DNA from: Candidatus Babeliales bacterium
GTDB taxonomy: Bacteria; Babelota; Babeliae; Babelales; Vermiphilaceae
DNA length: 64,000 nucleotides
Direction: 5' to 3'
Assembly (NCBI GenBank): GCA_963743635.1
Contig: CAVUQO010000003.1
Location: 576,001-640,000 of the forward strand
Shown: positions 30,959 through 48,388 of the stretch, in pieces
Position numbering within the stretch: the first letter of the stretch is position 1
Layout: each line of letters starts with the position of its first letter
Made by a program: the position numbers and the translations under genes
Notes under the pieces: model-generated
The model's database searches: none
What the model saw: only the letters and a program-made list of their open reading frames with translations
What the model was told of the DNA's origin: nothing

Positions 30959-32686
30959 TTAGGCAGCACTATCCATGCGCTTTTTATACTCAACGAAGAA
31001 GTTCTTTGCCACACCGGTCGGCACGCTTGAGGAACCGACGTTTTCAAGAATGATCACGATCGTCAGTGGTGTGTGGTGTTTGTAGTGGAAATGGCTCACA
31101 AACCAGCCATGTTCAAGATATTGCGTGCCAAGATCACGTTTTGCAAGATCGCTGTTTTGGGCGGTACTTGTTTTTGCATAGACCTGAATGTCTTTGACGC
31201 GACTTCTGCGACCCGTACCCACCGTTACTACTTTTTGCATTGAGCTGCGTAAAAATTCGAGTGTTTCGAGTCTGATATTGAGTGGTCTTTTTTCAATCGG
31301 CTCATCAGCAAGGATGCGGGGTTTAACGAGGTAGCGGGTGAAGATACTGCCAATCATGCAGGCAACTTGAATCGGCGTTACCAATAAAAAGCTTTGTCCA
31401 ATTGACGCTGACAGTGTTTCTCCAGGCCACCAACGTTCTCCTTTTGCACTTCGTTTCCAGGCGCGTGAAGGAACGAGGCCATCTTTTTCAGGGAATAAAG
31501 AATCTGTTTTTTGCCCCAGTCCAAAACGGTTGGCATAATTTGCTAATACGTCGATATCAATTTTTTTTGCGGTTTCATAAAAGATAATATTGCACGATTG
31601 CTCAAGAGCTTCTCCCGCGGTGAGCCTACCGTGTCCGTGTTTGTTATGGCACCAATATTTTCTGCCCGCAAACGTATAATTACCGCTGCAATAAACGGTT
31701 GAATCAGGGCGTACAAGACCCGTTTCGAGTGCTGCACTCATTGCAATCAATTTAAAAATTGATCCTGGCGGATAATGAGCGCTGAATGCTCGATTTAAAA
31801 AGGGCTGTTTGGCATCTTGCAGGATCTGCCATTCCTCAGGCAAAATGGGTTTTAAGAACATGTTAGGATCAAAACTTGGTTGCGAGGAGAGGGCCAAAAT
31901 TGCCCCATCTGCAGGGTTCATGACAATGAAGGCGCCTGCATAGATCTTGGGAAATACTTCTTCTACAATCGATTGTAGAGTCATATCAATGGTTGTTCTG
32001 ATCTCGCTGCCAATATTGGGATGTTCTATGGTTGTTTCGCTCAATGATTTGCCAAATGAATTGATTATTTTGAGTGTTGATCCATCTTGCCCTTTGAGCA
32101 ATTCATCACATACTTTTTCAATACCCATGCGCCCTTCATGGTTGGTATGCATACCGCTCAAATATCCAAGAATGTGGCTCGCAAAAGAACGGTGGGGATA
32201 GAGTCGTTCAAAATCGGTATCAATAATGATATTGGGATGTTCGGGAATCAGTTCTTGGAGTTTACTGAGCTGTTCGATTGAAAGATCGCGAGATAGTAAT
32301 AATTTTTTATAGCGCCGTTCTGCTTGCTGCAGCTCTGTTTTGCGTGTTTCATCTTGCGAGAAATCGATGCCGAGAATATGTTCAATATCCTCGATGATAG
32401 CGTTTTGTTCGCTATTGAATGAGCGATTGCCTGAACCTTTCCAATAGAGAGAAACCACGGGACGATTCGTAACGAGCAGCATGCCATTACGATCTACAAT
32501 ATTGCCGCGTGGTGATGCTATTTTTTCCGTCCGAATGAAATTACGTTGGCCCTGTTTTACAAAATTTTCGCTCAAACGTATCTGTAATACAAAAAGACGT
32601 ATAGCGATCATGCAAAATATGGCGCAGGTTGCCCAAAAAAGGTGCTGTATTTTGTATGCGGAAGGGGATATAGGCGCTTGATTCAT
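30959..32686 (-). CDS. mrdA: Penicillin-binding protein 2
   Basis: SPRGNIVDRNG, YPPGSIFK (SxxK), SCN and KTS. Confidence 0.93.
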   Translation of the reverse strand: MNQAPISPSAYKIQHLFWATCAIFCMIAIRLFVLQIRLSENFVKQGQRNFIRTEKIASPRGNIVDRNGMLLVTNRPVVSLYWKGSGNRSFNSEQNAIIEDIEHILGIDFSQDETRKTELQQAERRYKKLLLSRDLSIEQLSKLQELIPEHPNIIIDTDFERLYPHRSFASHILGYLSGMHTNHEGRMGIEKVCDELLKGQDGSTLKIINSFGKSLSETTIEHPNIGSEIRTTIDMTLQSIVEEVFPKIYAGAFIVMNPADGAILALSSQPSFDPNMFLKPILPEEWQILQDAKQPFLNRAFSAHYPPGSIFKLIAMSAALETGLVRPDSTVYCSGNYTFAGRKYWCHNKHGHGRLTAGEALEQSCNIIFYETAKKIDIDVLANYANRFGLGQKTDSLFPEKDGLVPSRAWKRSAKGERWWPGETLSASIGQSFLLVTPIQVACMIGSIFTRYLVKPRILADEPIEKRPLNIRLETLEFLRSSMQKVVTVGTGRRSRVKDIQVYAKTSTAQNSDLAKRDLGTQYLEHGWFVSHFHYKHHTPLTIVIILENVGSSSVPTGVAKNFFVEYKKRMDSAA

Positions 32687-33609
32687 GATTCCTTACGGTT
32701 TTTAATCATAGTGTGAATCGGATGTTTCGAATCGCAAATGCGTGAAAGATCATCAAGAGATACGTGCGTATATTTTTCGGTACTACTTAATGTTTTGTGC
32801 CCGAGTAATTCTTGTACTACGCGCAAATCAACGCCTTGATTGAGCATATGCGTTGCAAATGAGTGACGAATTTTATGGGGTGTTATCGGGCGATCTATTT
32901 TCAAAAATTGCCGAAACATTTCGATAATGCGCTGAATAGAGCGGCTGGTGAGCGCGGTACCACGATTATTGAGGAATAGTTTTTCGCTTGCATCATGCAC
33001 ATGTGGCCGTTCAGCAGCAAGATATTGCCTGATTTTATTTCTCGCTTTATCGCCAAAGAGCACGATGCGTTCTTTGGACCCTTTACCCGATATGCGCACG
33101 GTTTTATTTTCCATATCAATATCGCCGATACGTATAGAAACGAGCTCTGAGCAGCGCATGCCGGTCGCATAGAGCAATTCAAAGATAGTTTTATCGCGGA
33201 TGGGGCGCTTGGTGGGCAGTTGTTCGTCTTGAGTGTTATCAAGTAGATGGAATATTTCATCTACGCTTAAGTAGACGGGTAATTTTTTATCAAGGCGAGG
33301 GCGCGTGAGTTTGAGTTTGAGATCAATGCCGTACGTTTTTAAAAACTTTTCAAACGATTTAAAGCAGGAGAATTTGCGTGCGATTGAACTTTTATCAATC
33401 TTTTTGTAAAACAAACTCACCAAATAGCGCTCAATGACTTGCCGCAATCCATTGTTTTCAACCTTCAAACGCTCCTGATCTTCCCAAAAAAGGAGAAACT
33501 GTTTTAAGTCACTTTCGTAGGCACGCAATGTGTTGCCCGATAGATTACGCTCAACCTCAAGATGCGTGATGAACTCCGTAACTTTATCCTTAAACTCTTT
33601 TCGTTTCAT
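32683..33609 (-). CDS. xerC: Tyrosine recombinase XerC/XerD
   Basis: LLYATGMRCSE, GKGSKER, HKIRHSFATH and LLGH...TEKYT. Assignment to xerC versus xerD is uncertain. Confidence 0.88.
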   Translation of the reverse strand: MKRKEFKDKVTEFITHLEVERNLSGNTLRAYESDLKQFLLFWEDQERLKVENNGLRQVIERYLVSLFYKKIDKSSIARKFSCFKSFEKFLKTYGIDLKLKLTRPRLDKKLPVYLSVDEIFHLLDNTQDEQLPTKRPIRDKTIFELLYATGMRCSELVSIRIGDIDMENKTVRISGKGSKERIVLFGDKARNKIRQYLAAERPHVHDASEKLFLNNRGTALTSRSIQRIIEMFRQFLKIDRPITPHKIRHSFATHMLNQGVDLRVVQELLGHKTLSSTEKYTHVSLDDLSRICDSKHPIHTMIKNRKES

Positions 33610-33900
33610 GAACCACCTAACACTGCTTTTTTTAGATTTTTTTGTAACTCCGTCTCTAAATGTAAAGTTGTTCAGGGTAATTGGCAATAATTAGGTTGAA
33701 ATAGGTGTAAGAAAGAGATGGTGAGTACCTTGGTGGTTGGCATGACGCGGGTGCAACTTTTATAGTCCTTCGAACTTCAGGTAATCAACATCTCTTAAGA
33801 GGCCTTGATTATACCGCGTTCGATCATGTCTACAATATCTTGATTGACTGCGGGATCATGCTTTAAATCAAGAAGTTATTTTTGAATTTGGTACATTTGT

Positions 33901-34570: not shown

Positions 34571-34993
34571 CTATTCAGTAGTGGTTTGTAATCCAAGGAT
34601 TGTGAAATCTTTGCATAACCATAAGAGAAGTCTTATATATCTCGCAAAGTCGATGGTGCCAGCTTCGATGTCTATTTCTTGTTTCCACGGGAATCCAAAA
34701 TAGAATATGCTAATCCTTATACATTTATCACTTGGATCGATACGCATTAAAAAATCAGTATTTTCAAATTTTACCAGAAGATACGCATCGCTTGTATCAC
34801 ATAGATTTGTATCCGTGAATTTTAAGATCAATGCAGTTGCTTCCTGGGAGCTAAATGCACAGGGATAATAGTCATCGATAGATTGATTGTAATAAATAAA
34901 GCCTAAATTTGAGCCATGTTGAATGATATGCGCAATATTCTTAGAATTGTGCGGGGCATCCAATATAGCTGAAATGGAATGAGATATACTCAT
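34571..34993 (-). CDS. Putative cognate immunity protein
   Basis: ATGA overlap with the toxin stop codon; GAAGG RBS. Confidence 0.65.
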   Translation of the reverse strand: MSISHSISAILDAPHNSKNIAHIIQHGSNLGFIYYNQSIDDYYPCAFSSQEATALILKFTDTNLCDTSDAYLLVKFENTDFLMRIDPSDKCIRISIFYFGFPWKQEIDIEAGTIDFARYIRLLLWLCKDFTILGLQTTTE

Positions 34994-37080
34994 ATTGTTC
35001 CTTCGTGAAATATGATATTTTTTTCTATGAACCACGTTTTCCAGTTTTCTGGTATCGGCCCTTTAGAGTATACCGCATAAGACTTTTTGAGGTGATCCGC
35101 AATTAATTTTTGTTGTTGCAATTTTGATCGGATGTCAGTCACATTAACTTGCTCCCAATTCCAATTCTTGCATTCTATCAATTTGCTTTGAGTGCTAATA
35201 TCAAAATCTCTAGAAGCTTTGCCATTACCTAAGTATTCACCAAATTTGCTAACTTTTTCTCCCTTTGCTTCTAGCTGTGCCGCAACTTCTAATTCGTACA
35301 AAGCTCCTCGAGCAGTGCCCAAGTTTCCGGAAGTTGCATTTTTTTGTCCAGTTTTTACGAGGATAGCAAGTGGATGTTTGGACGGGTCGGCGGCGTCAAT
35401 ACTTTTCAGAAGAGATTCGGCTTCTTTGATTTTAGTTAGATCGCCGAGAGCTGGATCGAGCTCATGCCACGCGATGGGTTCATGCATAGTTTTCAATGTA
35501 GTGGATACTTTGCGTGCGCCGGCAACACCAGCATTCTCTTGCGCTGAAAGCATAACCGTTTCTGCAGCTTCGCCTGCTACAAGAACCTCAAAACCTTCGG
35601 CCGAGGCGAGCAACTTGGGTGCGGTTGCAAGGCCTTGTTCAATTTTTTTGGTAAATTCAACGACTTTGGCTTGAGCTTTTGCGTAGAACTTGCCGGAAAC
35701 GTCTAAACATTTTGCGGTAAGATAGGCTTCGGTACCAAATGCGATTGTACCTCTGACTATCTCTGGGCCAGAGATGCTTTGATATTTTTCGTAAATTTCA
35801 CGGTAGATTGCTTTAATGGGTTTCTCGTAGGCATATATTTTGTCTTGCCCTGCAATTGGATCAAGCAGATACGTTCCTGTAATATCGCATACTTCATACA
35901 GTACTTTACCAAGATGATATATAACGGCTTCTGTGGCGTGTCCGATATTGAGGACAATATCTATTGGGTGTGATAATGTGCGGACGGTATTTACAACTCC
36001 GTCCCCTACACCTTGCACAACCGCCCAGCCGTAATCATTAAGCGCAGAAACAAGATTCGATATTGCCATTGCTTGTTTTACATGTCCGGCGTTGTTGTAT
36101 GCCATTCCAACGTGAGCGAATTCGACGGCCGATTCGGCAATATGGCGAACTCCGGAAATGTGGCCGTGTCGTTCATTGAGAAGGGATGCCCTATTCACGT
36201 TTGTTACGAATTCGTCGTGAATATGTTGCTGTAAGGCATTACCATGACATTGTTTGAAATTGTCGGCGTCCAGATCAAGAGCTTGTAGTAATGGGTTTGC
36301 AACGGAAAGAACGGTGTATTTTTGCGTTCTAGAAGCAAAATTTTCATCTATGGTCTTTTCTATTACATAGGCGCGGTTCATTATAGCTTTTTCGTTCGGC
36401 GATTGAGCTTTTTCAATTGACCGAGCTGTATCAACAATAGCAGTAAGATCTTTCTTTTGTGCTTGAATGGTAGCAGTGACTTGCTGTGCGATTGCTTCAC
36501 GTTGCTTTGCTATTGCGGCTTGTTGTACGCGGACTCGTTCCTGATGCCTCATTGCTAGAACTTGTTTTGATTGTTCAGCTTCTTTGGAAATAAAATCTTT
36601 GACGCTGGAGCGACGCGCTATAAAGACATTATCAAGGTTCTTAGCGAGTGTTTTATCTTGCATGATTTGGTTATTAAGCCCCACCATGGCTTCATGATAA
36701 CCTTCGAGTGTTGCTATGTACGCGCGAAAAGATGGGAATTGATAGAGGTTAAATTGGCAAAAAAGATCATTACGGTCTACTTGATGCAATAAATGTACGC
36801 TTTGACCGGCCATATTGCTGAAAAAGTTATCCCATTGGCTAGTGGTGAAGCTCGAATGTTTTTGTATGGTATGGGCACGGAGTGATGAAAAAACAGTACG
36901 AACGAAGGTGAAGACTTGAGGTGCGCAATATGTCTGAGTGGTCGTCACCGGTCTAACGCAGACGGAAACAAAAACTCCGTCATCAGAGCCTTTTTTATTG
37001 GAAGAAAATTCAACACCAGAAAATAGTGGACATGGGAGTAATGCTACGCTGAGGATGAATGTTTTGATTTGTGGACGCAT
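34990..37080 (-). CDS. Secreted polymorphic toxin with a C-terminal PD-(D/E)xK nuclease-like domain
   Basis: Signal peptide, helical stalk, pre-toxin-like GVGDGVVNTVRTLSHP segment, C-terminal YELEVA...DFDI...LIECK. Confidence 0.7.
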   Translation of the reverse strand: MRPQIKTFILSVALLPCPLFSGVEFSSNKKGSDDGVFVSVCVRPVTTTQTYCAPQVFTFVRTVFSSLRAHTIQKHSSFTTSQWDNFFSNMAGQSVHLLHQVDRNDLFCQFNLYQFPSFRAYIATLEGYHEAMVGLNNQIMQDKTLAKNLDNVFIARRSSVKDFISKEAEQSKQVLAMRHQERVRVQQAAIAKQREAIAQQVTATIQAQKKDLTAIVDTARSIEKAQSPNEKAIMNRAYVIEKTIDENFASRTQKYTVLSVANPLLQALDLDADNFKQCHGNALQQHIHDEFVTNVNRASLLNERHGHISGVRHIAESAVEFAHVGMAYNNAGHVKQAMAISNLVSALNDYGWAVVQGVGDGVVNTVRTLSHPIDIVLNIGHATEAVIYHLGKVLYEVCDITGTYLLDPIAGQDKIYAYEKPIKAIYREIYEKYQSISGPEIVRGTIAFGTEAYLTAKCLDVSGKFYAKAQAKVVEFTKKIEQGLATAPKLLASAEGFEVLVAGEAAETVMLSAQENAGVAGARKVSTTLKTMHEPIAWHELDPALGDLTKIKEAESLLKSIDAADPSKHPLAILVKTGQKNATSGNLGTARGALYELEVAAQLEAKGEKVSKFGEYLGNGKASRDFDISTQSKLIECKNWNWEQVNVTDIRSKLQQQKLIADHLKKSYAVYSKGPIPENWKTWFIEKNIIFHEGTI

Positions 37081-37139
37081 GGTATTGCTAAGCATGATGG
37101 CGGATCCTGCAAATGGTTATATGCTATGAGTATGCTGAC

Positions 37140-38381
37140 TTAAGTAGAGGTAATTTTACTGATTATATTCATGATAATCCAGATACCATTTATCCTATTC
37201 CACGTAAGATTTTCAGTATCTCTGTTTAGAGCTCGTTGTTTTTCTTGCTCTTCTTTGGTTGCAGTTCGCTGGAGTGCGACCTCTTTTTTTATTTTTTCCA
37301 ATTCTTTCATGAAATGTGTTTGGGCAATTGGTTCGCTATTACATACTGCATTTCTATGCGCATGTTTGCAAAGATTCGAAATATTCCGAACGCTAAAATT
37401 TTTTGTTTCTCTGATGAGTGTTTCGATGTCTTCTTTGGAGCAATATTCATCGAGTTTTTGTTGCGTATATTTTTCTGAAAAATGATCGAGCAGTTCTGTA
37501 CGGTGTTGGGCATCAGGATTTTTCATATGGATGCAAAGATCGACTCTGTTCCTGAGTTCCACCGGAACTCTATTGAGATGGTTGGTAGCAAAAATGAAAA
37601 ATACGCATGGATTATTTTTATTTTTATCAATGTGGCGCCACAGTGCTTTGTAGGCAGCATCATACTCAGTACGAGCAGTTGAATTTTCATTGCAGGAAAA
37701 GGCATCTATTTCATCGATAAAAATAATAACTCGTTTTTTGTATGCTTTTCCCTCTGCGATAGCATTTTCAATGCTTTCATTAATAATCGCTTTACTGCCG
37801 CCGATAAAGCCATCCAGAACATCTGCGCCGTAAATTTCCACAAAGTGGCTATCGGTGTTTTTCGCGATTGCTTGTGCAAGTGCCGTCTTGCCTACTCCGG
37901 TAGGACCTTCCAATAAAAGTACATTATCGATTTCTTTTTCATGACGAAAGATAAGTCCTAGGCTGATTTCCTTGTTATCTTCTTTGAGTTGCTCAATGAT
38001 TGGGCGTATTTCTGGTGGGCAGGCACCGATCATGCCCGGTATTTCGTAGCGAGGTTCATCTGAATCGTAATTGGGCGTATAGTCTATTTTTTTGAGTTGT
38101 TTTTGGTACCAATAGTATCCAGCACCCAACGCAACAATCCCCCCTGCAGCGAGATGAGAAAAATAGGGAGAGCCAGTTGCAGCGTTGATGTTAGTGGTAA
38201 TTGCTGCATAAGCGTTTGAAAATATATTGCTACTATTCGCGGATTGTGCATTTTGTAGAGTACTTGCTCCAGAAGCAAAAGGGAGTGGTATATGTGCTGA
38301 TGAGTATGCAAGATTTGAAAGGCTAAGAAATAGTATAAATGTTTTTAGGGTTCGAGTGTGAATGTGCATGATAATGTGCAT
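37140..38381 (-). CDS. Signal-peptide-bearing AAA+ ATPase with an internal TM segment
   Basis: GPTGVGKT, IFIDEID, FATN and LRNR; TM LAAGGIVALGAGYYW. Confidence 0.88.
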   Translation of the reverse strand: MHIIMHIHTRTLKTFILFLSLSNLAYSSAHIPLPFASGASTLQNAQSANSSNIFSNAYAAITTNINAATGSPYFSHLAAGGIVALGAGYYWYQKQLKKIDYTPNYDSDEPRYEIPGMIGACPPEIRPIIEQLKEDNKEISLGLIFRHEKEIDNVLLLEGPTGVGKTALAQAIAKNTDSHFVEIYGADVLDGFIGGSKAIINESIENAIAEGKAYKKRVIIFIDEIDAFSCNENSTARTEYDAAYKALWRHIDKNKNNPCVFFIFATNHLNRVPVELRNRVDLCIHMKNPDAQHRTELLDHFSEKYTQQKLDEYCSKEDIETLIRETKNFSVRNISNLCKHAHRNAVCNSEPIAQTHFMKELEKIKKEVALQRTATKEEQEKQRALNRDTENLTWNRINGIWIIMNIISKITST

Positions 38382-38455
38382 GATTTGGTACCTGAATGAA
38401 AGACACACTCTATTGAGCATGTCTTTCCAGTTTGTATAATATATTTCTTGGGAGA

Positions 38456-39592
38456 TTAAGAGTACTGGCGTAAAAGGCGCTCAGTGCTTTCTTCATTAAA
38501 CGCAGCTCTTTGTATGTTATATGAGGCTTGCTGTAATTTGAGTATTTCTTGCTGTATTGCGTCCTGTTCGTTCTCTCTTTTTAAGGTTCGTTGCTTTTCG
38601 AGTTCAGCTTCAGTTGGAGTATGTTGTAGCGCAACTTTTGCCTTCATTGCCTGTAAGGCGTACAGGAGATGATTTTCGGTAATTGGTGTGTTTTCACGTG
38701 CTGCATAATCACGACTGGAAAAACAGAGGTCTTCAATATCACGAATACTGAAATGTTCCGTTTGTTCTACTACCGTTTGTATGCACGTATCGGTACAGTA
38801 TTCTGCAAGTTTTTTCTGTGCGAGTTCCTTTGAAAAACAATCTAGTAATTCCCGGCGTTGTTGAGCATCAGGATTTTTCATCGAAACAATCTTACGGCCT
38901 ATTCTGTTTTTGAATGGAAGGGGTAAGCGATCCAAGCGATTGGTTGCAAAGATAAAAAGAACTTCTGGTTTGTACTGATTGTCATCTATATAGCACCACA
39001 AGGCTGCCATCGCAGCATCGTATTCAGTATGAGCGGCTGATGTTTCATTATTTGCAAGTTTGTCTATTTCATCAAATAAAATGACTACTCGCTTGTTAAG
39101 CGCTTTGCCTTCGGCCATTGCTTTGTCAATTTCTGCCATAAGGGCTTCTGTGGTTCCTCCAAGGTAGCGATTCAGAAGCTTAGGTGTGTTAATTTTAAAG
39201 AAATGGCTGTCTGATTCTTTGGCTATTGCTTCGGCAAGTCTTGTTTTGCCGATTCCAGTCGGTCCTTCGAACAGGAGCAGATTTTTATCTTCGCTTTTTT
39301 CAGAAGGTTTTGGTCCAAAACTAATTTTGTTAGCTTCTCGCATGAGACGTTTGATGGTGTCGCATGCGTCAGTTGGACATGTTCCGGCCATGCCGGACAC
39401 ATAACAAGGAGGAATTTTCGGAGTGTAAGGATTCTCAACTGGTGGTGTTGGAGCTGCTGGCGGTGTTACTGGAGCAGTAGGCGGAGGCGGTGATGGGTAA
39501 AGCCAATATGCTTGCACTGAAATGTGTGAAATGGCAACAAGTAGAATAAAAATTTTGCGCGCGTAAGAATATGTGCATCTGGTGTTATGCAT
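38456..39592 (-). CDS. Signal-peptide-bearing AAA+ ATPase with a Pro-rich N-terminus (paralog of 37140)
   Basis: GPTGIGKT, ILFDEID; shares TEYDAA..ALW..ID and MKNPDAQ.R with its neighbour. Confidence 0.88.
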   Translation of the reverse strand: MHNTRCTYSYARKIFILLVAISHISVQAYWLYPSPPPPTAPVTPPAAPTPPVENPYTPKIPPCYVSGMAGTCPTDACDTIKRLMREANKISFGPKPSEKSEDKNLLLFEGPTGIGKTRLAEAIAKESDSHFFKINTPKLLNRYLGGTTEALMAEIDKAMAEGKALNKRVVILFDEIDKLANNETSAAHTEYDAAMAALWCYIDDNQYKPEVLFIFATNRLDRLPLPFKNRIGRKIVSMKNPDAQQRRELLDCFSKELAQKKLAEYCTDTCIQTVVEQTEHFSIRDIEDLCFSSRDYAARENTPITENHLLYALQAMKAKVALQHTPTEAELEKQRTLKRENEQDAIQQEILKLQQASYNIQRAAFNEESTERLLRQYS

Positions 39593-39717: not shown

Positions 39718-42462
39718 TCACTGGAAGTTATATTCCTTGCAGCGGCGGTTGACGGAAGAGCGGTTGACGCCGAGAAATGCGGCGATTTGATTTTGGTTTT
39801 TGAATTTGTTCCAGAGTATCGTCATCGTCTTATGATCGCGCAGCGCATGTTTGCCCATGCGGGCTGCTTGGATGAGTGTTGGATCGCTCACCGTATATGC
39901 TGGATCAAATTGAGTTTCTTGGTAGATATGATTCTTTTTTGATTTATCGATGAGTAGTTGTTGAATACGTTTTTTCAATGCAGTTAAACTTACTGGACGT
40001 TGATGCGCAAGTTTGTTTTTTTCGCTCGGCGTGAGCTCAAAGAGCGTTTTGAAATCGTTGACCGTGAGTGCTTGCTGTGTAAAGCCATCAGCGAGTGCGT
40101 GCAGTTCGTCTTCAGGCAGTGTCAGCAAAGATGGCATGGAGAGAGTTGTTCTTTTTAATTCGTTAAACAGTGCTTTGGAGAAGATACCTTCTTGTACGAG
40201 CGCTTGTAAATTATGATTCGTCGAACAAATGACGCGCACATTACTCGCGGCGTGCGTATCACTTTTGAAGGTGCGATAGAATCCTGTTTTAAGAAACTCT
40301 GCCAAATATTCCTGCGTTTCAAGATTCATGAAATGCACATTTTCGATAAAGAGGGTGCCCGTAGTACTCAGTTTTTCAAGAAGCGGTTGCACACCATTTT
40401 CTATGCCGAGCATAGGATTTATACCGAATAATTTGATAGCAAGATCAAAATTGGTATTTGGGTAGTGCAATTTTATGACGTGCAGCTGTTCGCGCAGATT
40501 AATGTGATGCAATATTTCTACCGTTGCGAGAAGGTCATCTTCCGGCATATCGAGTAAAATTGCTTTTTTGGTGAGCGCAACTTGCAACAGTTCGATTTTA
40601 AAATTCAGGAGTATTTCACCAGATCCTGGAATGAGCTGATTGATGAGCCTTCCCGATTCGGTAGTTTCTAAATAGAGTAAATAATCCCACGTGGTAGGAT
40701 CTTGGAGTAAATCAATTTGTTTGGAAATAATATCGGATATATCGGGCCGGCAGATGGTGATGATAACATTATTATGCTCAAGATTGGGAACTGCGGAGAT
40801 GACGAGCTTGTTATCCGTTTGATCCTGCGTGAGTGCCGTTTGCGGCGCCTTATATTCCTCCACTTGGTGTGCGATGTGCCGTAGCGTTTTGGTGAGTGGG
40901 TGACCTTCTTGTTGGTTGAGGTTGATGTTGATCAAATCTTTAGCGATTTTGTTGCCGTAAATAAAACGGCGATTCTTATAAAACAGAATACCAATCTCTT
41001 TTTGCTTTGAATTACGCAGGAATGAACGCATGCTTTCTTTATATTGATTAATTTCTTGGTGTTTTGCATAGAGCTCTTCCTTGAGGAGCTTTTCTTGCTG
41101 AATGAGCCCATCAACACTGCGGTTTTGCAGTAGATTAATACTTTTTCCTAAGTAACTCGCAAAGACAAGCATTTCGTCGTGCTCAACATTGCCATAAAAT
41201 TCATGCTCACGCGCATGCCGTTCGACGATTATATAGGCGATAATTTTATTGTGTTCAAAGATGGGAATGAAGATATCCGCATTAATTGATTCAAGAAAGT
41301 TAAGGATGATCGTACGCGTCGGTTTTTGCTCGTAAAAATTACTGAAGGCTATTTCATCATGGATAAGTACTTTCATGCGGTTAATATAATCGCAGACCGC
41401 TTCATCATGCGTAGTCATGAACTGCTCTACAAACGCCTCGAGTTTTGAAGTTTCTCCGGATATTGTTGATTGCGCGACGTGGTTGAGGTTGCGAATCGAA
41501 AGTGCTGTTTTATTGCGAGGTATGTCAAAGGCGTTCTTGAAAAAATGCTGCGTCACTTGTCCGAGTTCATTGAGGGTTGTTGCCTGACTGAGCTGCTCAA
41601 GTACCTCTTTGAAATCATCGATGAAATCAAAATGGCGCGTTGACTGAACGTGATTTTTAAAATTAAGAAAGCGTAATCCTATTACATTTTTTATGCCGTA
41701 ATAAATGGCATACGTTATTAGGATTGTGGAAACGCTGACGATGGCATACAAATTTCCTTGCAGAAGGCCCCTAAAATTAAACTGACATGCTTGGAGTGTT
41801 TCGGTGATGGTATATGGTAATACCAGATATAAGGTGAAGATGCGGAGTTGTTTTTGCAGGATTTTGGGCACTTGTGATTTGCGTATGGTGCGTACTGCGG
41901 AAATAAGGATAGGCAGGGTGATGCATACCAGCAGATATATTGCGACGATGCGCATCATAAATGCTTCAAGGGGCAGGTTAGGATCAAGCATGGGAAGGCG
42001 AAAGGCTTCTCCACGCTCAGCTTTCGATATTCCGTTGGCAAAAAAAATGGCGAGCATCAAAAAATAGGCGCCGAATGCAGCACTGATGAGCGAGAATGTT
42101 TTATGAATTCTATTGAGCCGAAATGTTTTGGTTGAAAGACTCTCAATTAATAAGGCGAGTGATTGATATTGCAGTATGAGAAATGTCCATGATATTCGTA
42201 CGAAAAAGGTATATACCCCATATGGCATATCGGGAAAAGCGAGCTGACGCGCAAATTTTACGATCCATGCGAGATCACCAAACATTGAGCCGATGAGAGT
42301 GCAGAGCAAGAAGAGCCATGGTTTATTGAGCGGAGTGGTACGCAAACCTTGAGGTATAATTAATTTGAGCAAATAGGTTTTGACGGCAAAAGAAATTAAA
42401 GTTGCGGTCATGATGAATCCAGGACTCGCTAAGATACGATAGATTTCTTCGATGAATATCAT
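39718..42462 (-). CDS. Membrane-bound one-component regulator 1 (multi-TM, GAF-like, degenerate sigma54-activator AAA+, Fis-type HTH)
   Basis: About 7 N-terminal TMs; GAF-like ADIFIPI...IIAYIIV; GTLFIENVHFM...NVRVICSTN...LFNEL; C-terminal [20 protein letters not shown]. Confidence 0.85.
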   Translation of the reverse strand: MIFIEEIYRILASPGFIMTATLISFAVKTYLLKLIIPQGLRTTPLNKPWLFLLCTLIGSMFGDLAWIVKFARQLAFPDMPYGVYTFFVRISWTFLILQYQSLALLIESLSTKTFRLNRIHKTFSLISAAFGAYFLMLAIFFANGISKAERGEAFRLPMLDPNLPLEAFMMRIVAIYLLVCITLPILISAVRTIRKSQVPKILQKQLRIFTLYLVLPYTITETLQACQFNFRGLLQGNLYAIVSVSTILITYAIYYGIKNVIGLRFLNFKNHVQSTRHFDFIDDFKEVLEQLSQATTLNELGQVTQHFFKNAFDIPRNKTALSIRNLNHVAQSTISGETSKLEAFVEQFMTTHDEAVCDYINRMKVLIHDEIAFSNFYEQKPTRTIILNFLESINADIFIPIFEHNKIIAYIIVERHAREHEFYGNVEHDEMLVFASYLGKSINLLQNRSVDGLIQQEKLLKEELYAKHQEINQYKESMRSFLRNSKQKEIGILFYKNRRFIYGNKIAKDLININLNQQEGHPLTKTLRHIAHQVEEYKAPQTALTQDQTDNKLVISAVPNLEHNNVIITICRPDISDIISKQIDLLQDPTTWDYLLYLETTESGRLINQLIPGSGEILLNFKIELLQVALTKKAILLDMPEDDLLATVEILHHINLREQLHVIKLHYPNTNFDLAIKLFGINPMLGIENGVQPLLEKLSTTGTLFIENVHFMNLETQEYLAEFLKTGFYRTFKSDTHAASNVRVICSTNHNLQALVQEGIFSKALFNELKRTTLSMPSLLTLPEDELHALADGFTQQALTVNDFKTLFELTPSEKNKLAHQRPVSLTALKKRIQQLLIDKSKKNHIYQETQFDPAYTVSDPTLIQAARMGKHALRDHKTMTILWNKFKNQNQIAAFLGVNRSSVNRRCKEYNFQ

Positions 42463-42467
42463 TTTTA

Positions 42468-42496
42468 TTGATCTTGTGTTATGGTCCCGTTATACT
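42468..42496 (+). promoter_or_regulatory. sigma70-type promoter for peptide gene 1
   Basis: TTGATC (42468-73), 17-bp spacer, TATACT (42491-96); same position relative to the regulator ATG as at 47441. Confidence 0.7.
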
Positions 42497-42639
42497 ACTA
42501 CGCAAATTGTATAGAAGTATTAACACTAAAAACGCAATATGTTAAGCATTAACTATTTTTGGGTATTACTTTCTAGTGTTGGAAAAATTGTATTGGTGAT
42601 GTATTCAATGTTTTGGTTATAACCTTAGGGGATATTATT

Positions 42640-42762
42640 ATGATAAATCGTAAAAAATTATTGAGACTTGGATATGTGATTGTGTTCTTTAATGTGGGAT
42701 GTGCATTCGCAGCATGGCCGCCACCACCAGATGATGCTCCTCAGATGAATATCCAAAAGTAA
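42640..42762 (+). CDS. 40-aa secreted peptide precursor MINRKKLLRLGYVIVFFNVGCAFAAWPPPPDDAPQMNIQK
   Basis: AGGGG RBS, basic n-region, hydrophobic h-region, AFA cleavage motif, terminator 19 bp downstream. Confidence 0.78.
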   Translation: MINRKKLLRLGYVIVFFNVGCAFAAWPPPPDDAPQMNIQK

Positions 42763-42780
42763 CAAAACATAAAAAATAAA

Positions 42781-42820
42781 AAAACTGCACTGTAGATTTG
42801 AGTCTACGGTGCAGTTTTTT
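42781..42820. terminator. Bidirectional terminator, homologous to 44619-44662
   Basis: AAAACTGCACTGTAGA...TCTACGGTGCAGTTTT. Confidence 0.88.
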
Positions 42821-42829
42821 AATAGCTTT

Positions 42830-42915: not shown

Positions 42916-44262
42916 TCAACTCACCACCACCGGCACCAAGGCACTTTCTCCACCGAGCGAGCTCACGGCACTCACAAAGAGGTTGTTGCCACTATCGCCA
43001 GCGGGTACGAATGCATTAAACGTGAGTGGTGATGTTGCAAGCACGTTCCCCACCAGCGTGGTGCCGTTATAAATATTGTATGACGTTACGTCAGGCGTTA
43101 CGCTCGCAGTCCAGGTGATGGTCAGCATGCGCGCCGTTTGCAACAGGAATACATTATTTTTGCGCACGCCAACAACATTCGTTGGTGCGGCAACTCCCGC
43201 CGAGGGGATCACTTGGCCAGTTACCGCTAGTGCATACGCACCTCCACTGACTGCGATCGGCGTTCCTGCTAATGGTGAGCCCACCGTAATTGGCGTAACG
43301 GTATTATTACTATTATTACCAGTTGCGACGTATACCGTTCTACCATCAAGAGAAATTGCAATATTTTCTAAATTCTTAGATATATTAGACACCCCCATAA
43401 TGGTACTGGTTACACTCGGCGTCAGCAAGGTAAGATCAATAACACTCACCGTTCCATCACCCAGATTGGTTACATACGCATAATGATTATCAGGGGTTAT
43501 GGCAATGCCATAAGGAGAAGTACCAACCGAAATAGGATAGCCCGCAGGCGCAGGCGAAAGATCAAACGGTTGTACTTCATTTTTGCCAGCGAAAACGACA
43601 TACGCAGTATCAGTAGCCGTATCAATCGCAACACCAAATGGAAATGAAGTATCAGGATTGGATTGATAGTATGTCTGATTCAATGTTAAAAGATCAACTT
43701 TGTAAAATCCGTATGCATACTGGCTCAGGGATATTTGAATAAGAAGCGTTATATAGGCAACATGATTACTAATGACCAAGCCGCCAATCTCCTCTTCTTG
43801 CCCCACCAATGGATTAGTAAGAACAGTAACAGATCCCAGAATAGGCGCTGATGGATCTGCGATATTCACTGGCACAAGAATTGCTGCATTTCCCAGATCT
43901 AATCCTGCTATATATGCGGTTGTTCCATCAATGGCTATAGCTTCGGGGATAAGGGGAATACCACTTAAATCCGTAGTACTCACAATGTTATTGGTGGCAA
44001 TATCAATTGCTAGTAACGTGTTATGATTATTATCAATCATGTATGCGGTTTTATTATCCGTTGATATCGCGACCCCGACAAGATTCGCACTATTGGGCAC
44101 TGCGAACGGCGAGCCGGCAATGGGAGCGCCCGTTGCTTGATCAATTACCGAGAATGATGAACTTGTGCCATTGGCCACATACACAAACGGTGCGGCATCG
44201 ACTGCTTGCCAAGAAATGAGTAGTGATATGCTGAGTACAATAAGAGATTTTTGTACGTTCAT
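42916..44262 (-). CDS. Secreted YVTN/YncE-type beta-propeller with an FN3-like C-terminus
   Basis: Signal peptide, FVYVAN, PYGIAITPDNHYAYVTN..DGTVSVID and ITWTAS...SYNIY. Confidence 0.85.
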   Translation of the reverse strand: MNVQKSLIVLSISLLISWQAVDAAPFVYVANGTSSSFSVIDQATGAPIAGSPFAVPNSANLVGVAISTDNKTAYMIDNNHNTLLAIDIATNNIVSTTDLSGIPLIPEAIAIDGTTAYIAGLDLGNAAILVPVNIADPSAPILGSVTVLTNPLVGQEEEIGGLVISNHVAYITLLIQISLSQYAYGFYKVDLLTLNQTYYQSNPDTSFPFGVAIDTATDTAYVVFAGKNEVQPFDLSPAPAGYPISVGTSPYGIAITPDNHYAYVTNLGDGTVSVIDLTLLTPSVTSTIMGVSNISKNLENIAISLDGRTVYVATGNNSNNTVTPITVGSPLAGTPIAVSGGAYALAVTGQVIPSAGVAAPTNVVGVRKNNVFLLQTARMLTITWTASVTPDVTSYNIYNGTTLVGNVLATSPLTFNAFVPAGDSGNNLFVSAVSSLGGESALVPVVVS

Positions 44263-44394
44263 TTTTTTCCTTTTTTTGTTAGGGGTTATCTTCAAAATAT
44301 ATTTACCATTAAACGTACTGAGAATATACAATATTCGTTCCTCGTGCCGGATTCAATTATTACTAACCATTGCTTAGATGCGATCGCCCTCATT

Positions 44395-44715: not shown

Positions 44716-47435
44716 TTATTCCAAATTATATTCTTTGCAGCGGCGATTCACCGATGAGCGATTAACGCCCAGGAATGTTGCAATCTTACTTTGATTTTCA
44801 AATTTGCGCCAGAGCATGGTGAATATTTTGCGATCTTTGAGCGCCTGTTTGCCAAGGCGCGAAGCTTCAATAAGATCAGGATCGGAAACTTCATACGCAG
44901 GATCAAATTCAGTTTCATTATAAATATTGTTCTTCTTGGATTTTGCAACGAGTAAGTGCTGTACCTTATTTTTCAGTTCATGCAAACTGGTCGGACGGCT
45001 ATGGATGAGTTTAATTTTTCACGATCGGTGAATTCAAGGAAATTCTTCAAATCGTCCGTTTTGATTGCTTGTTCGGTCAATCCATCAGCCAAGCTGGGCA
45101 ATTCATTTTCAGGCAAGGTAACGAGCGATGGCATTGCTAGAGAGGTGCGAGATAACTCATTAAAGAGGGTCGCAGAGAACTTTTGTTCACGCACGAGCGT
45201 TTGTAAATCTTGATTGGTTGAGCAGATAATGCGTACCGTAGTTGGAATGCGTTGCTCGCTTTTCACGCGGCGATAGAAGCCATACCGAATCAATTCAGCC
45301 AAATATTCTTGGCTTTCAGAATCAAGGAAATGAATGTTCTGAATAAAGAGGGTAGCCATTATCGGCGAGTGTTCCAAGATAGGTTTTTGTTCTTGCGGAT
45401 GGCCAAAAAGAGTGGATTGATGCCAAAGAGTTTGATCGCAATTTCGCATCGTAGTGCAAGGGCCGCTCAATTTGAGCATGTGCAAGCGTATCGCGCAGAC
45501 TGATATGGTGAATGATTTCAACGGTTGGCATCAAGATCTTCATCATTCATTTCAAGCAAAATAGCTTTTTTACTGAGCGCGGTTTTTAGAAGTTCGATTT
45601 TAAAGTTTAAAAGCGTTTCACCAGTCCCAGGAATAAGCTGATTAATAAGTTGTCCTGATTTGGTAGTCTCAAGATAGAGCAAATAATCCCATTGCGTTGG
45701 ATCTTTTAAATGATCGATCTGTTTTTTCAAAATGTCTGAAATTTCAGGATGGTATACGGTGATGATGATATTATTTTGTTCGAGATTGGGTACGCCTGAA
45801 AATACGATCTTATTGCCCGCTACGTCATAGGTAATACAACTTTGGGGCGATTTATACTCTTCAACCTGGCGCGCAATATGGCGGGCAGCTTTGGTCAGTG
45901 CATGGCCTTCTTGGGTATTGATGTTAATTTTAATGAGATCTTTTGCGGCCTTATTGCCAAAAATGAACCGGCGATTTTTATAAAAGAGAATACCGATCTC
46001 TTTTTGTGGTGAATTGCGCAGGAATGAACGAATACTTTCTTTATACTGATTCACTTCTTGATGCTTGCGATACAGCTCTTCTTTGAGCTCTTTTTCGTGA
46101 TGCATGAGTGATTCAAGGTTGCGATGCTGCATAAGGTTGATGATGTTCGCCAGATAGCTGCCAAATACAAGCATTTCGTCGCGCTCAACGTTACTATAAA
46201 ACTGTTCAGGCCGCGCGCCACGATCGACGACTAAGTAACCAACCAAACGTTGTTTTTGATAAATAGGAAGGAAGATATCAGCATTAATTGTTTCAAGAAA
46301 TTGCAGCATCAGGTTACTGATATCGCTTTTTTCATAGAAGTTACTAAAAGCAATCTCATCATGAATGAGAATTCCTTCATTTTTAAGTACTGTTTCAAAG
46401 CGTTGACTATGGGTGCTCGATAAAGTTTTCCACCAATGTTGCAGTAGTATTCACGTAAAACGGATGCCCTTCATTCATTTCAGATTTTTCAATATGCCGT
46501 ACGAATAGCATCGTTTTATTGAGGGGCACATTAAACGCCTCTTTAAAATAGGTCTGTGTAATATGGCGCAAGCTTTGTTCATTCGTCGCATGACTCAATG
46601 ATTCAAGCACCTGCTTAAAGCCGTCGACAAAATGAAACTGACGCGGAATTTCTACATGCCGCTTTAAATTCAAGAACCTGAGGGACATCATACGCCGCGA
46701 ACAGTAATAGATGGCATAGGTCAGAATGATGGTTGATATACTAACCGCTGCATAACTATTGGTAATCCAGGTAGGATGAAAAACGAGCGGATATACTTGA
46801 ATTAGATCGGTGATCCAAAAAGGGATAATAAATACTTGGGTAATAATGCGTGCTTGTGTTGAAAGAATGCGTGGTGAATTATTAGAACGCAGTTTGCGAA
46901 ATACCAGAAAAAGACTGAAGGGAATAAGAAAAATAGAGAGAAAAAATGATTGATATTTACGCACTTCAAATTCTATTGGTGGCCGTGCGGCTGAATTGAG
47001 ACAATTAATATCGTAAAAAGCAAGACCAACTACAAACATGAAGAAACAACTACTCAATAAAATAGAGAGTTTTTGGCGAATGTTAAATTCGTTTTTTTGT
47101 TCAGTTAAATTCTCTATAAAGATCGATAGGGATTGATAGAGAATTCCTGTAAAAGCCCATGCTAAACGAATGATGAACAGCTTTGCGGAATATGGTATTG
47201 CAGGAAATATGAGCTGCCGTGTCAATTCAATTATCCACGCAAAATCACTGATTGCAGCGCTGCCTAGGATAATTAACAATAAGTACCATGGCTTTTTATT
47301 AGTAGGCGAAATATTTTTTTGTAGCACCAGCGTGGCAAAGATGCCAATTTTTAATAAAAATGAGCATGAGGTAATAGCCAGTAATAAATACTGATTACCG
47401 ATGGTGCATTCGAGAAAATCGAGAAAATGTGTCAT
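44716..47435 (-). CDS. Membrane-bound one-component regulator 2, paralog of 39718-42462 (several frameshifts)
   Basis: The ORF pieces align in order with regulator 1 ([51 protein letters not shown]); could also be a true pseudogene. Confidence 0.85.
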
Positions 47436-47523: not shown

Positions 47524-47628
47524 ATGTCTAAGTTAATCACATTGATTAGCAAGATAAGCAGAGCACATGTTGCTTTAGTTTTATCGGTTGTTGCCTATTT
47601 GCTAGGTGATTATCCACCAGGCGATTAA
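47524..47628 (+). CDS. 34-aa peptide precursor MSKLITLISKISRAHVALVLSVVAYLLGDYPPGD
   Basis: AGGAG RBS 6 nt upstream, hydrophobic core, DYPPGD tail; syntenic with peptide 1. Confidence 0.75.
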   Translation: MSKLITLISKISRAHVALVLSVVAYLLGDYPPGD

Positions 47629-47710: not shown

Positions 47711-48388
47711 GTGAAACAGTCGATAGCTCAAAAGCGTCAGAAAGCTGTTGCCATTGTAACAATGTTACGAAAAGCGACGGCGAATATGGAAAAACCGGCT
47801 GTTTCACATGTGGTCCAGGCCTATGGACGCGATCCATACCTCATCCTTATCAGCTGTTTGCTGAGTCTTCGGGCCAAAGATACGGTATCCCTACCGATAG
47901 CCCTCAAGCTGTTCAAGTTGGCAAAAACGCCCCAAGAAATCGTTAAAATCCCCCGTCACGAGCTTGAAAAGCTATTTTTCTCCATTGGCTATTATCGCCA
48001 AAAGGCCAAAGCGGTCCATGAAGTGAGTCAAGAACTCATTGAGCGATTCGATGGCAAAGTTCCCAAAACACAAAAAGAATTACTCTCTCTGAAGGGAGTC
48101 GGCATCAAAACGGCCAATCTTGTTTTGGGTGAGGCATTTGGTATTCCTGCCATTTGCGTGGATATCCATGTCCATCGCATCTCAAATCGCCTCGGGTTAG
48201 TGGAAACTAAGACTGCCGAGGAAACCGAGGTAGCGCTCCAAGAGATCCTACCCAAAGAATATTGGATTGAATTTAATTATCTTTTGGTGACCTGGGGGCA
48301 GAATATCTGCGTTCCCGTTTCCCCGTTTTGCTCACGCTGCGTGCTGAGCGATATTTGTCCGAAAAAGGGCGTCATCCGGCGGCGTTAA
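47711..48388 (+). CDS. nth: Endonuclease III
   Basis: HhH motif LKGVGIKTA, VDIHVHRISNR and C-x6-C-x2-C-x5-C. Confidence 0.96.
   Translation: MKQSIAQKRQKAVAIVTMLRKATANMEKPAVSHVVQAYGRDPYLILISCLLSLRAKDTVSLPIALKLFKLAKTPQEIVKIPRHELEKLFFSIGYYRQKAKAVHEVSQELIERFDGKVPKTQKELLSLKGVGIKTANLVLGEAFGIPAICVDIHVHRISNRLGLVETKTAEETEVALQEILPKEYWIEFNYLLVTWGQNICVPVSPFCSRCVLSDICPKKGVIRRR

Follow-up and report, generated by a model that had tools for sequence, protein, structure and literature searches.

The DNA analysed here, hereafter the window, is a 64,000-nucleotide stretch of a Candidatus Babeliales genome (assembly GCA_963743635.1, contig CAVUQO010000003.1, positions 576,001 to 640,000 of the forward strand), and the subject is a very small gene in it, pep1 (42640..42762, forward strand), together with the large regulator gene from which it diverges, regulator 1 (39718..42462, reverse strand). 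A sequence-only reading of the window had proposed that pep1 encodes a signal peptide followed by a short Pro-rich peptide, the latter being a candidate ligand of regulator 1. The coding part runs from 42640 to 42759 and is closed by a TAA stop at 42760-42762. Its 40 codons, counted in the sequence, place it below the 60-amino-acid cutoff of the open reading frame (ORF) list, as that reading had stated, and the other parts that it described were all found: an AGGGG ribosome site at 42627-42631, 8 nt before the ATG; a basic N-terminal region (Arg4, Lys5, Lys6 and Arg9); an uncharged segment from Leu10 to Gly20, within an uncharged stretch that extends to Trp26; and an Ala22-Phe23-Ala24 site, which leaves a 16-residue tail made of residues 25 to 40. 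The best mean Kyte-Doolittle hydrophobicity over 15 residues is 1.99, and the flanks of the hydrophobic part carry net charges of +4 on the N-terminal side and -1 on the C-terminal side. In the tail, Trp26 is followed by four Pro and then by 10 further residues up to the C-terminal end. The exact peptide sequence is missing from a collection of 15 billion proteins, and pep1 is therefore unannotated. Two other readings of the peptide were set aside. A lipoprotein reading, based on Cys21 after Val-Gly, was ruled out, this Cys being conserved in none of the orthologs. The Trp, four Pro and acidic run of the tail resemble eukaryotic proline-rich ligands, and a reading as a host mimic was dropped because the Pro number only two in the orthologs.

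The start codon is preceded by a conserved block (42616..42639, forward strand), defined by a 5-way DNA alignment of the pep1 loci, which holds the AGGGG Shine-Dalgarno motif and a TATAAC-like element, and of which positions 42616-42630 are invariant. Further upstream, and directly beside the start codon of regulator 1, a consensus scan gave a candidate pep1 promoter, TTGATC, 17 nt, TATACT (42468..42496, forward strand). Both of its hexamers are invariant in five of five orthologs, the leader that it would give is about 135 nt long, and a matching layout is found beside regulator 2, the second regulator copy in the window. A putative promoter for regulator 1, proposed by the consensus scan on the reverse strand (42516..42545), overlaps the pep1 leader, so that pep1 and regulator 1 would be transcribed from start sites that face each other. 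The segment 42463-42550 is the best-conserved intergenic DNA of the locus, about 90% across the five orthologs, and is more conserved than the pep1 ORF. The face-to-face overlap of the two candidate promoters in this segment suggests either mutually exclusive transcription or a shared operator. A regulon search with a 12-nt conserved word of the promoter returned a single site, that of the locus itself.

The terminator which had been placed shortly after the pep1 stop was recovered by its folding energy, as a feature spanning 42779..42826 and composed of an A-run, a hairpin with a 13-bp G+C core and a T-run. It begins 16 to 22 nt downstream from the stop, depending on how the A-run is counted. 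The hairpin (42779-42820) folds at -26.6 kcal/mol, with a z score of -9.15, and none of 200 shuffled sequences did as well; its G+C core occupies 42785-42814 and is followed by six T. Since an A-run lies on the 5′ side of the hairpin, the terminator is read as working in both directions, and it probably serves both pep1 and the gene which faces it in convergent orientation (42916..44331, reverse strand). A simple consensus scan had listed 0 terminator-like sites and so missed this hairpin. Equivalent hairpins follow the ORF in three of the four close orthologous loci. Searches for structured RNA gave nothing at the Rfam gathering score in six related loci, and around pep1 only hairpin matches far below threshold. 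A conserved stretch 700-990 nt upstream in relatives, considered as an RNA gene, turned out to be nth (the endonuclease III gene) read in the wrong frame.

A 40-codon ORF alone says no more than chance, as 10 kb of this DNA holds 132 ORFs of at least 25 amino acids; what lifts pep1 above chance is the comparison with orthologous loci and with the family described below. An equivalent ORF, of 35 to 40 codons, at the same place and on the same strand, was found in all four close orthologous loci, whose regulators are 75-81% identical and in which the block with the ribosome site and the ATG is invariant. Nine residues are invariant in pep1 and its orthologs (Met1, Lys5, Val13, Ala22, Pro29, Pro30, Ala33, Pro34 and Lys40). 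Differences among the orthologs number 110, 128 and 179 at codon positions 1, 2 and 3, the third position varying most. When the 1.45-Mb genome was scanned for ORFs of 18-61 amino acids with a Shine-Dalgarno motif and an ATG, 8 hits among 2563, corresponding to 7 distinct ORFs, had both a hydrophobic core and the Pro-Pro motif at the C-terminal end; the ORFs beside the two regulator copies are two of these seven. A third one, on contig 2, was taken as a chance occurrence, since it is contained in a longer ORF next to ATP-synthase-like genes. We conclude from these comparisons that pep1 is a real, small gene.

Loci related to that of regulator 1 very often carry such an ORF. On the strand divergent from the regulator, and within 450 nt, an ORF ending in Pro-Pro, 0 to 4 residues and a stop was present at 29 of 39 genome loci, against 4.4 +/- 2.1 (maximum 11) in shuffled sequences; with metagenome loci included, the figures were 87 of 116 against 12.2 +/- 2.9 (maximum 21). 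A Shine-Dalgarno motif precedes 81 of 92 micro-ORFs, against 81 of 639 (13%) neighbouring control ATGs, and 62 of 116 upstream regions of the family, against 3 of 116 when shuffled, have a promoter-like motif, TTGAnn-N16-18-TAnAnT, next to the start of the regulator. Terminators are not a family trait: 19 of 92 micro-ORFs have one, and 6 of 92 do after shuffling. Canonical members number 77, with lengths of 20 to 61 residues, mostly 25 to 36, and with stops concentrated at 140-260 nt from the start of the regulator. The segment from the first Pro to the C-terminal end has 4 residues in 47 of them, 3 in 14, 5 in 11 and 6 in 5. Immediately before Pro-Pro they mostly have Phe, Tyr, Trp or Gly, and one position earlier Asp or Glu (31 members) or Arg (9). 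The position that follows Pro-Pro shows no conservation (Gly 18, Phe 10, Val 9, Thr 7, others). A membrane-like hydrophobic window is present in 66 of the 77. In one locus (L097), two family micro-ORFs in tandem, of 36 and 37 residues, adjoin the upstream side of a single regulator (at 1524) and represent a duplicated peptide gene.

Canonical members have a hydrophobic or aromatic residue and Pro-Pro within 0 to 4 residues of the C-terminal end. In pep1, 10 residues follow, and in its four orthologs 9 to 11, which makes of them a long-tailed variant. This subfamily has an aromatic residue, Pro-Pro, any residue, Asp or Thr, Ala-Pro, and then 5 to 7 residues ending in Lys. The pep1 stop is found 300 nt from the start of regulator 1, and those of the four orthologs at 281-288 nt. 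Regulator 1 nests inside the family tree. We class pep1 as a diverged member, with a long tail, of a family found across Dependentiae. The peptides of this family, of 20-40 residues, combine a short basic N-terminal end, a helix that is hydrophobic or amphipathic, and a hydrophobic or aromatic residue before Pro-Pro near the C-terminal end, and they are encoded back-to-back with a regulator that has seven transmembrane helices (7TM).

Regulator 1 is a predicted protein of 914 amino acids which, according to Pfam and to an AlphaFold2 model, is made of an N-terminal helix and seven transmembrane helices (residues 14-266), a middle region and a degenerate AAA+ domain of the sigma-54-activator type, and ends in a helix-turn-helix. 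Of 61 related genomes, 52 have a homolog, among them all 36 that belong to the same family, and the named homologs come from Candidatus Dependentiae/Babeliales. In a further sampling the regulator was present in 66 of 66 genomes of the family, and a phylum sample of 201 genomes gave the 7TM domain in 151. Its Pfam match covers only the C-terminal half of Sigma54_activat, and Pfam gave nothing in the middle region (residues ~290-650). The best matches among structures of the Protein Data Bank were LuxO, NtrC1 and PspF, with alignments covering only the second half of the AAA+ domain. Walker B reads Glu-Asn, and the consensus of 55 homologs contains neither a P-loop nor a GAFTGA. The sigma-54 DNA-binding domain (Sigma54_DBD) was found neither in the genome of the window, which is 85% complete, nor in any of 41 family genomes, of which 32 are of high quality. 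Regulator 1 thus departs from the definition of enhancer-binding proteins, and its sequence predicts a protein that is ATPase-dead and sigma-54-independent. In public records, regulators of this family are labelled 'sigma 54-interacting', although 41 genomes have no match to the sigma-54 DNA-binding domain.

The N-terminal part (residues 1-330) was modelled from 71 sequences with a confidence (pLDDT) of 90, as a short N-terminal helix followed by seven transmembrane helices. In a structural search against representative chains, all 50 top rows were chains with the fold of G-protein-coupled receptors (GPCR), with Z scores of 14.1-16.3, root-mean-square deviations of 3.7-5.4 and 217-251 aligned residues; the matches span residues 8 to 267 or so, at 5-12% sequence identity. 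Foldseek gave no match at E <= 0.001, and only weak ones to GPCRs. By language-model likeness, Atlas clusters carrying HisKA_7TM scored 0.90 and 0.87; the corresponding profile (PF16927) had no Pfam hit in regulator 1 at E <= 5, and none genome-wide at E <= 10. The model thus points to a likeness of fold between the 7TM domain and GPCRs, with the helices arranged alike, and not to shown kinship. No match to a TPR family was found in regulator 1.

That pep1 is linked to regulator 1, as the sequence-only reading had supposed, is strongly supported by the conserved divergent pairing and by co-duplication. Family members were sorted by the residue placed two before Pro-Pro: the basic class, with Arg or Lys at this position, has 16 members, and the acid class comprises 42 of the 92 micro-ORFs. 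In a tree of 114 regulator N-terminal domains, built by a quick maximum-likelihood method, 15 of the 16 basic peptides belong to a group of 31 rows that holds regulator 1, and 41 of the 42 acid peptides to a group of 83 rows that holds regulator 2. The gene downstream from the micro-ORF is nth in 37 of 42 acid-class loci, mostly at a distance of 55-100 nt, versus 1 of 16 basic-class loci. The micro-ORF was therefore retained after an old tandem duplication, with unlike genes downstream from the two copies, and its constant neighbour is the regulator. No other gene for a sensor partner of regulator 1 is apparent. We conclude from the tree and the gene order that peptide and regulator were duplicated together, and that the peptide classes follow the two paralog clades of the regulator.

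The explanation that we favour, with a probability of about one half, is that the pep1 product is the cognate micropeptide partner of regulator 1, entering or crossing the membrane and meeting the 7TM domain there. The helix of pep1 would take the peptide into or across the inner membrane; its Trp-Pro-Pro-Pro-Pro-acidic tail would then be presented to the receptor-like 7TM domain of regulator 1, whose occupancy would alter the output of the DNA-binding end. The target would probably be the divergent promoter region that the two genes share, which is highly conserved, and a feedback loop would result. Translation of pep1 in vivo, its insertion or export, its binding, the target promoters, and action as a whole or as a cleaved peptide are all steps that we infer. 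The flank charges of pep1 and of all 42 acid-class members fit a topology with the N-terminus in and the C-terminus out.

Several observations weigh against this explanation. Charge complementarity between the peptide classes and the periplasmic loops of the regulator, for which some columns were suggestive (Arg82, Glu147, Glu149 and an insertion of 4 residues at 151-154), was not significant in independent-pair tests. The best results came from the basic class: position Glu149 scored 4.4 the same way and 0 the opposite way, of 8 pairs, and position 151 scored 3.7 the same way and 0 opposite, both with a median p of 0.125 and with columns that had been picked post hoc. The basic class has the opposite bias in flank charges, N below C in 10 of 16 members, and 11 of the 77 canonical members have no membrane-like window and are amphipathic instead; no single topology of the Pro-Pro motif therefore emerges. 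Of the 114 regulator copies, about 22 have no micro-ORF detectable by the criteria used, and Pro-Pro-stop ORFs exceed the shuffled level on the regulator strand as well (9 of 39 genome loci, 33 of 116 in the larger set). The basal split of the regulator tree is weakly supported (39), and because relatives share class labels, the agreement of class and clade speaks for co-inheritance and not for co-evolution. The Z scores of the GPCR-like matches, finally, are only slightly above the chance level for helical bundles.

Other explanations of the locus were weighed against the same material. The one put forward by the sequence-only reading keeps the idea of a partner, as does the explanation favoured here, and differs from it in the processing step: pep1 would be a Sec-type pre-peptide, processed in a Phr-like manner, from which signal peptidase I, cutting after Ala24, would free a diffusible 16-residue Pro-rich ligand of regulator 1. 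The basic N-terminal end, the hydrophobic stretch and the Ala-Phe-Ala of pep1 are those of such a precursor, two signal peptidase I genes are present in the genome, and three of the orthologs have hydrophobic cores of ~12 residues, nearer to the length of a signal peptide than to that of a membrane span. When Trp26 is aligned by eye, in one register, with the Phe or Tyr of the orthologs, the residue at -1 is small in five of five (Ala in four, Ser in one), the residue at -3 is allowed in four of five, and the would-be mature peptides are all 15-16 residues long. The Ala-x-Ala site itself, however, is not conserved, and one ortholog has only ~8 hydrophobic residues. Two orthologs have Arg at +1 (pep1 itself has Ala25 and then Trp26) and the tails of four have a net charge of +2 to +3, features which disfavour Sec export. 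In the family as a whole the -3/-1 rule holds for 35 of 92 members, somewhat above what composition predicts, as judged without a formal control. It fails in most members nevertheless, and in the basic class, whose regulators are the closest to regulator 1, it holds for 2 of 16; a cut would leave just 5-8 residues in most members, and 11 of the 77 canonical members have no hydrophobic window. A signal peptidase I cut is possible for the pep1 subfamily, but is not a trait of the family. From the model as first proposed, the real small gene and the strong link to regulator 1 stand, it is not established that signal peptidase I frees a 16-residue peptide, and we regard the model as a whole as doubtful.

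The remaining explanations do without a peptide ligand. The act of translating or transcribing the micro-ORF could matter instead of its product, either as a leader with Pro-Pro pausing sensitive to elongation factor P (EF-P), or as a divergent unit interfering with the regulator promoter that it overlaps; at acid-class loci it would govern how nth is expressed. In most members the Pro-Pro lies at a set distance, 1-4 codons ahead of the stop (from the first Pro to the end there are four residues in 47 of 77), EF-P is encoded in the genome, the candidate promoters overlap face to face, nth comes after 37 of 42 acid-class ORFs at the short distances given above, and only 19 of 92 micro-ORFs have a terminator. 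Strong Pro-Pro stalling depends on the residue after Pro-Pro, and this residue is not conserved here. Moreover, a strong terminator ends pep1 and three of its four orthologs, and no gene lies downstream from them; a polyproline leader has the gene that it controls on the same transcript, whereas what follows pep1 is the terminator and then a convergent gene. Pausing does not explain the conserved basic N-terminal end, the hydrophobic helix or the acid or basic residue which follows the clades, and we consider this explanation unlikely. Alternatively, pep1 may be the true gene of a small membrane protein with a function that has nothing to do with the regulator, and the two would be neighbours through inherited gene order in small genomes that rearrange slowly. 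Small hydrophobic proteins are common, the order regulator, micro-ORF, nth is conserved, and the second micro-ORF of the window, pep2, is intact in this genome though its regulator is broken. Yet the micro-ORF was kept with each regulator copy after the old duplication, in different downstream contexts, and shares with the regulator a compact, highly conserved promoter region, and we consider this explanation quite unlikely. A last explanation, that pep1 is not a gene and is a chance ORF in conserved promoter and terminator DNA, draws on the abundance of short ORFs already mentioned, on the absence of pep1 from the output of any gene caller, and on the fast evolution of the peptide (188 non-synonymous versus 62 synonymous differing codon pairs). 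Although the DNA of the ORF is less conserved than the promoter, the start, the stop, the length, the Shine-Dalgarno motif and the positions of Pro-Pro, Ala-Pro and Lys are kept in four of four orthologs, and the family statistics (divergent pairing, Shine-Dalgarno enrichment, genome-wide motif scan) point to a gene. Such a chance origin is very improbable, and already largely refuted.

Coming back to the micropeptide partner, the known systems closest to pep1 and regulator 1 in gene layout and precursor anatomy are the SHP/Rgg (and ComS/ComR) modules of streptococci, of the RRNPP type. There too a very small ORF diverges from its regulator and encodes a basic N-terminal end, a hydrophobic body and an active part at the C-terminal end, and target genes can lie downstream from the peptide gene. 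The resemblance stops at the receptor, which is a cytoplasmic TPR protein in SHP/Rgg and a 7TM membrane protein with a dead AAA+ core here, so that regulator 1 falls outside the definition of the module; the motif is aromatic-Pro-Pro, and the phylum and the envelope type differ as well. An Opp-type importer was searched for through SBP_bac_5, which was not found in the genome of the window (85% complete). An M50 protease is present, but this protease is ubiquitous. In the Phr/Rap systems of Bacillus, precursors of ~40 residues with a Sec signal give a short active peptide from their C-terminal end, and the gene adjoins that of its target. The micro-ORF family differs from them by the lack of conservation of the signal-peptidase site, and by its type of receptor. 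As for the regulator, there are atypical relatives of enhancer-binding proteins, TyrR and others, which are sigma-54-independent and have no sigma-54 contact loop. Regulator 1 has, as they do, an NtrC-family AAA+ scaffold and a C-terminal helix-turn-helix; unlike them, it has also lost Walker A and Walker B, and has a 7TM domain fused at its N-terminus. Among the SHPs, the active peptide of groups I and II begins with a conserved Asp or Glu, according to the accessible part of one report (PMC13361665); this leading residue recalls the acid class here (42 of 92), to which pep1, having no leading acid residue, does not conform. MgrB, which acts on PhoQ, is like pep1 a single hydrophobic helix of a few dozen residues, and acts in a feedback loop on the membrane or periplasmic part of a sensor (PMC2789325, PMC8404706, accessible parts). 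It differs from pep1 in not being encoded beside phoQ and in having no Pro-Pro end, and its sensor is a histidine kinase instead of a one-component 7TM regulator. No publication on a system of micropeptide and 7TM regulator was found in the part of the literature searched. The Chromulinavorax genome paper, in its accessible part, gives quorum sensing as absent and names only three regulators (PMC6561590).

A second copy of the system lies downstream in the window. The micro-ORF pep2 (47524..47628, forward strand), of 34 codons, belongs to the acid class, ends in Asp-Tyr-Pro-Pro plus two residues, and is listed in public collections as an unnamed 34-amino-acid protein. It diverges from regulator 2 (44716..47435, reverse strand), a paralog of regulator 1 which is split into four frame segments by two in-frame stops and at least three frameshifts, and which is either a recent pseudogene or affected by assembly errors. 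An intact nth (47711..48388, forward strand; Pfam HhH-GPD) starts 82 nt after pep2. Between pep1 and regulator 2, the gene at 42916-44331 (reverse strand) encodes a 471-amino-acid protein with an N-terminal signal-like segment and weak matches to beta-propellers (lactonase/SGL-like); as the regulator copies are directly tandem in relatives, it looks like an insertion. On the other side, directly downstream from regulator 1 and on the same strand, two tandem genes encode AAA-family ATPases (37140-38420 and 38456-39592, reverse strand), each with a hydrophobic N-terminal segment and a Pro-rich linker, which may be targets or mere neighbours. Farther on is found an ORF of 701 amino acids (34990-37095, reverse strand) without a Pfam match at E <= 1e-5, adjoining genes for a XerC/D-type integrase (32683-33687) and a penicillin-binding protein (30959-32686).

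What the window itself contributes is one more, atypically long-tailed, member of the family. New here are the division into acid and basic classes in accord with the paralog clades, the association with nth, the subfamily of pep1 with its long tails, and the test of the cleavage idea. Standard annotation mislabels the regulator, as 'sigma-54 interacting', and misses the pep1 gene. Extending the favoured explanation, we tentatively propose a one-component peptide-signalling device unlike any described: a 7TM receptor of GPCR fold, fused to a DNA-binding module on the scaffold of a dead sigma-54 activator, would read a self-encoded aromatic-Pro-Pro micropeptide, with the two ancient classes of peptide and receptor, acid and basic, behaving like pherotypes. 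In a parasite that is obligately intracellular, such an autocrine signal could report confinement in the host vacuole, or population size, and so time the developmental switch. If true, this would be a rare bacterial case in which a 7TM receptor serves peptide signalling. The genomes of Dependentiae are very small and have few recognisable regulators, and a regulator that has its own tiny peptide gene and is widely kept is a strong candidate for a main environmental or developmental switch of these parasites.

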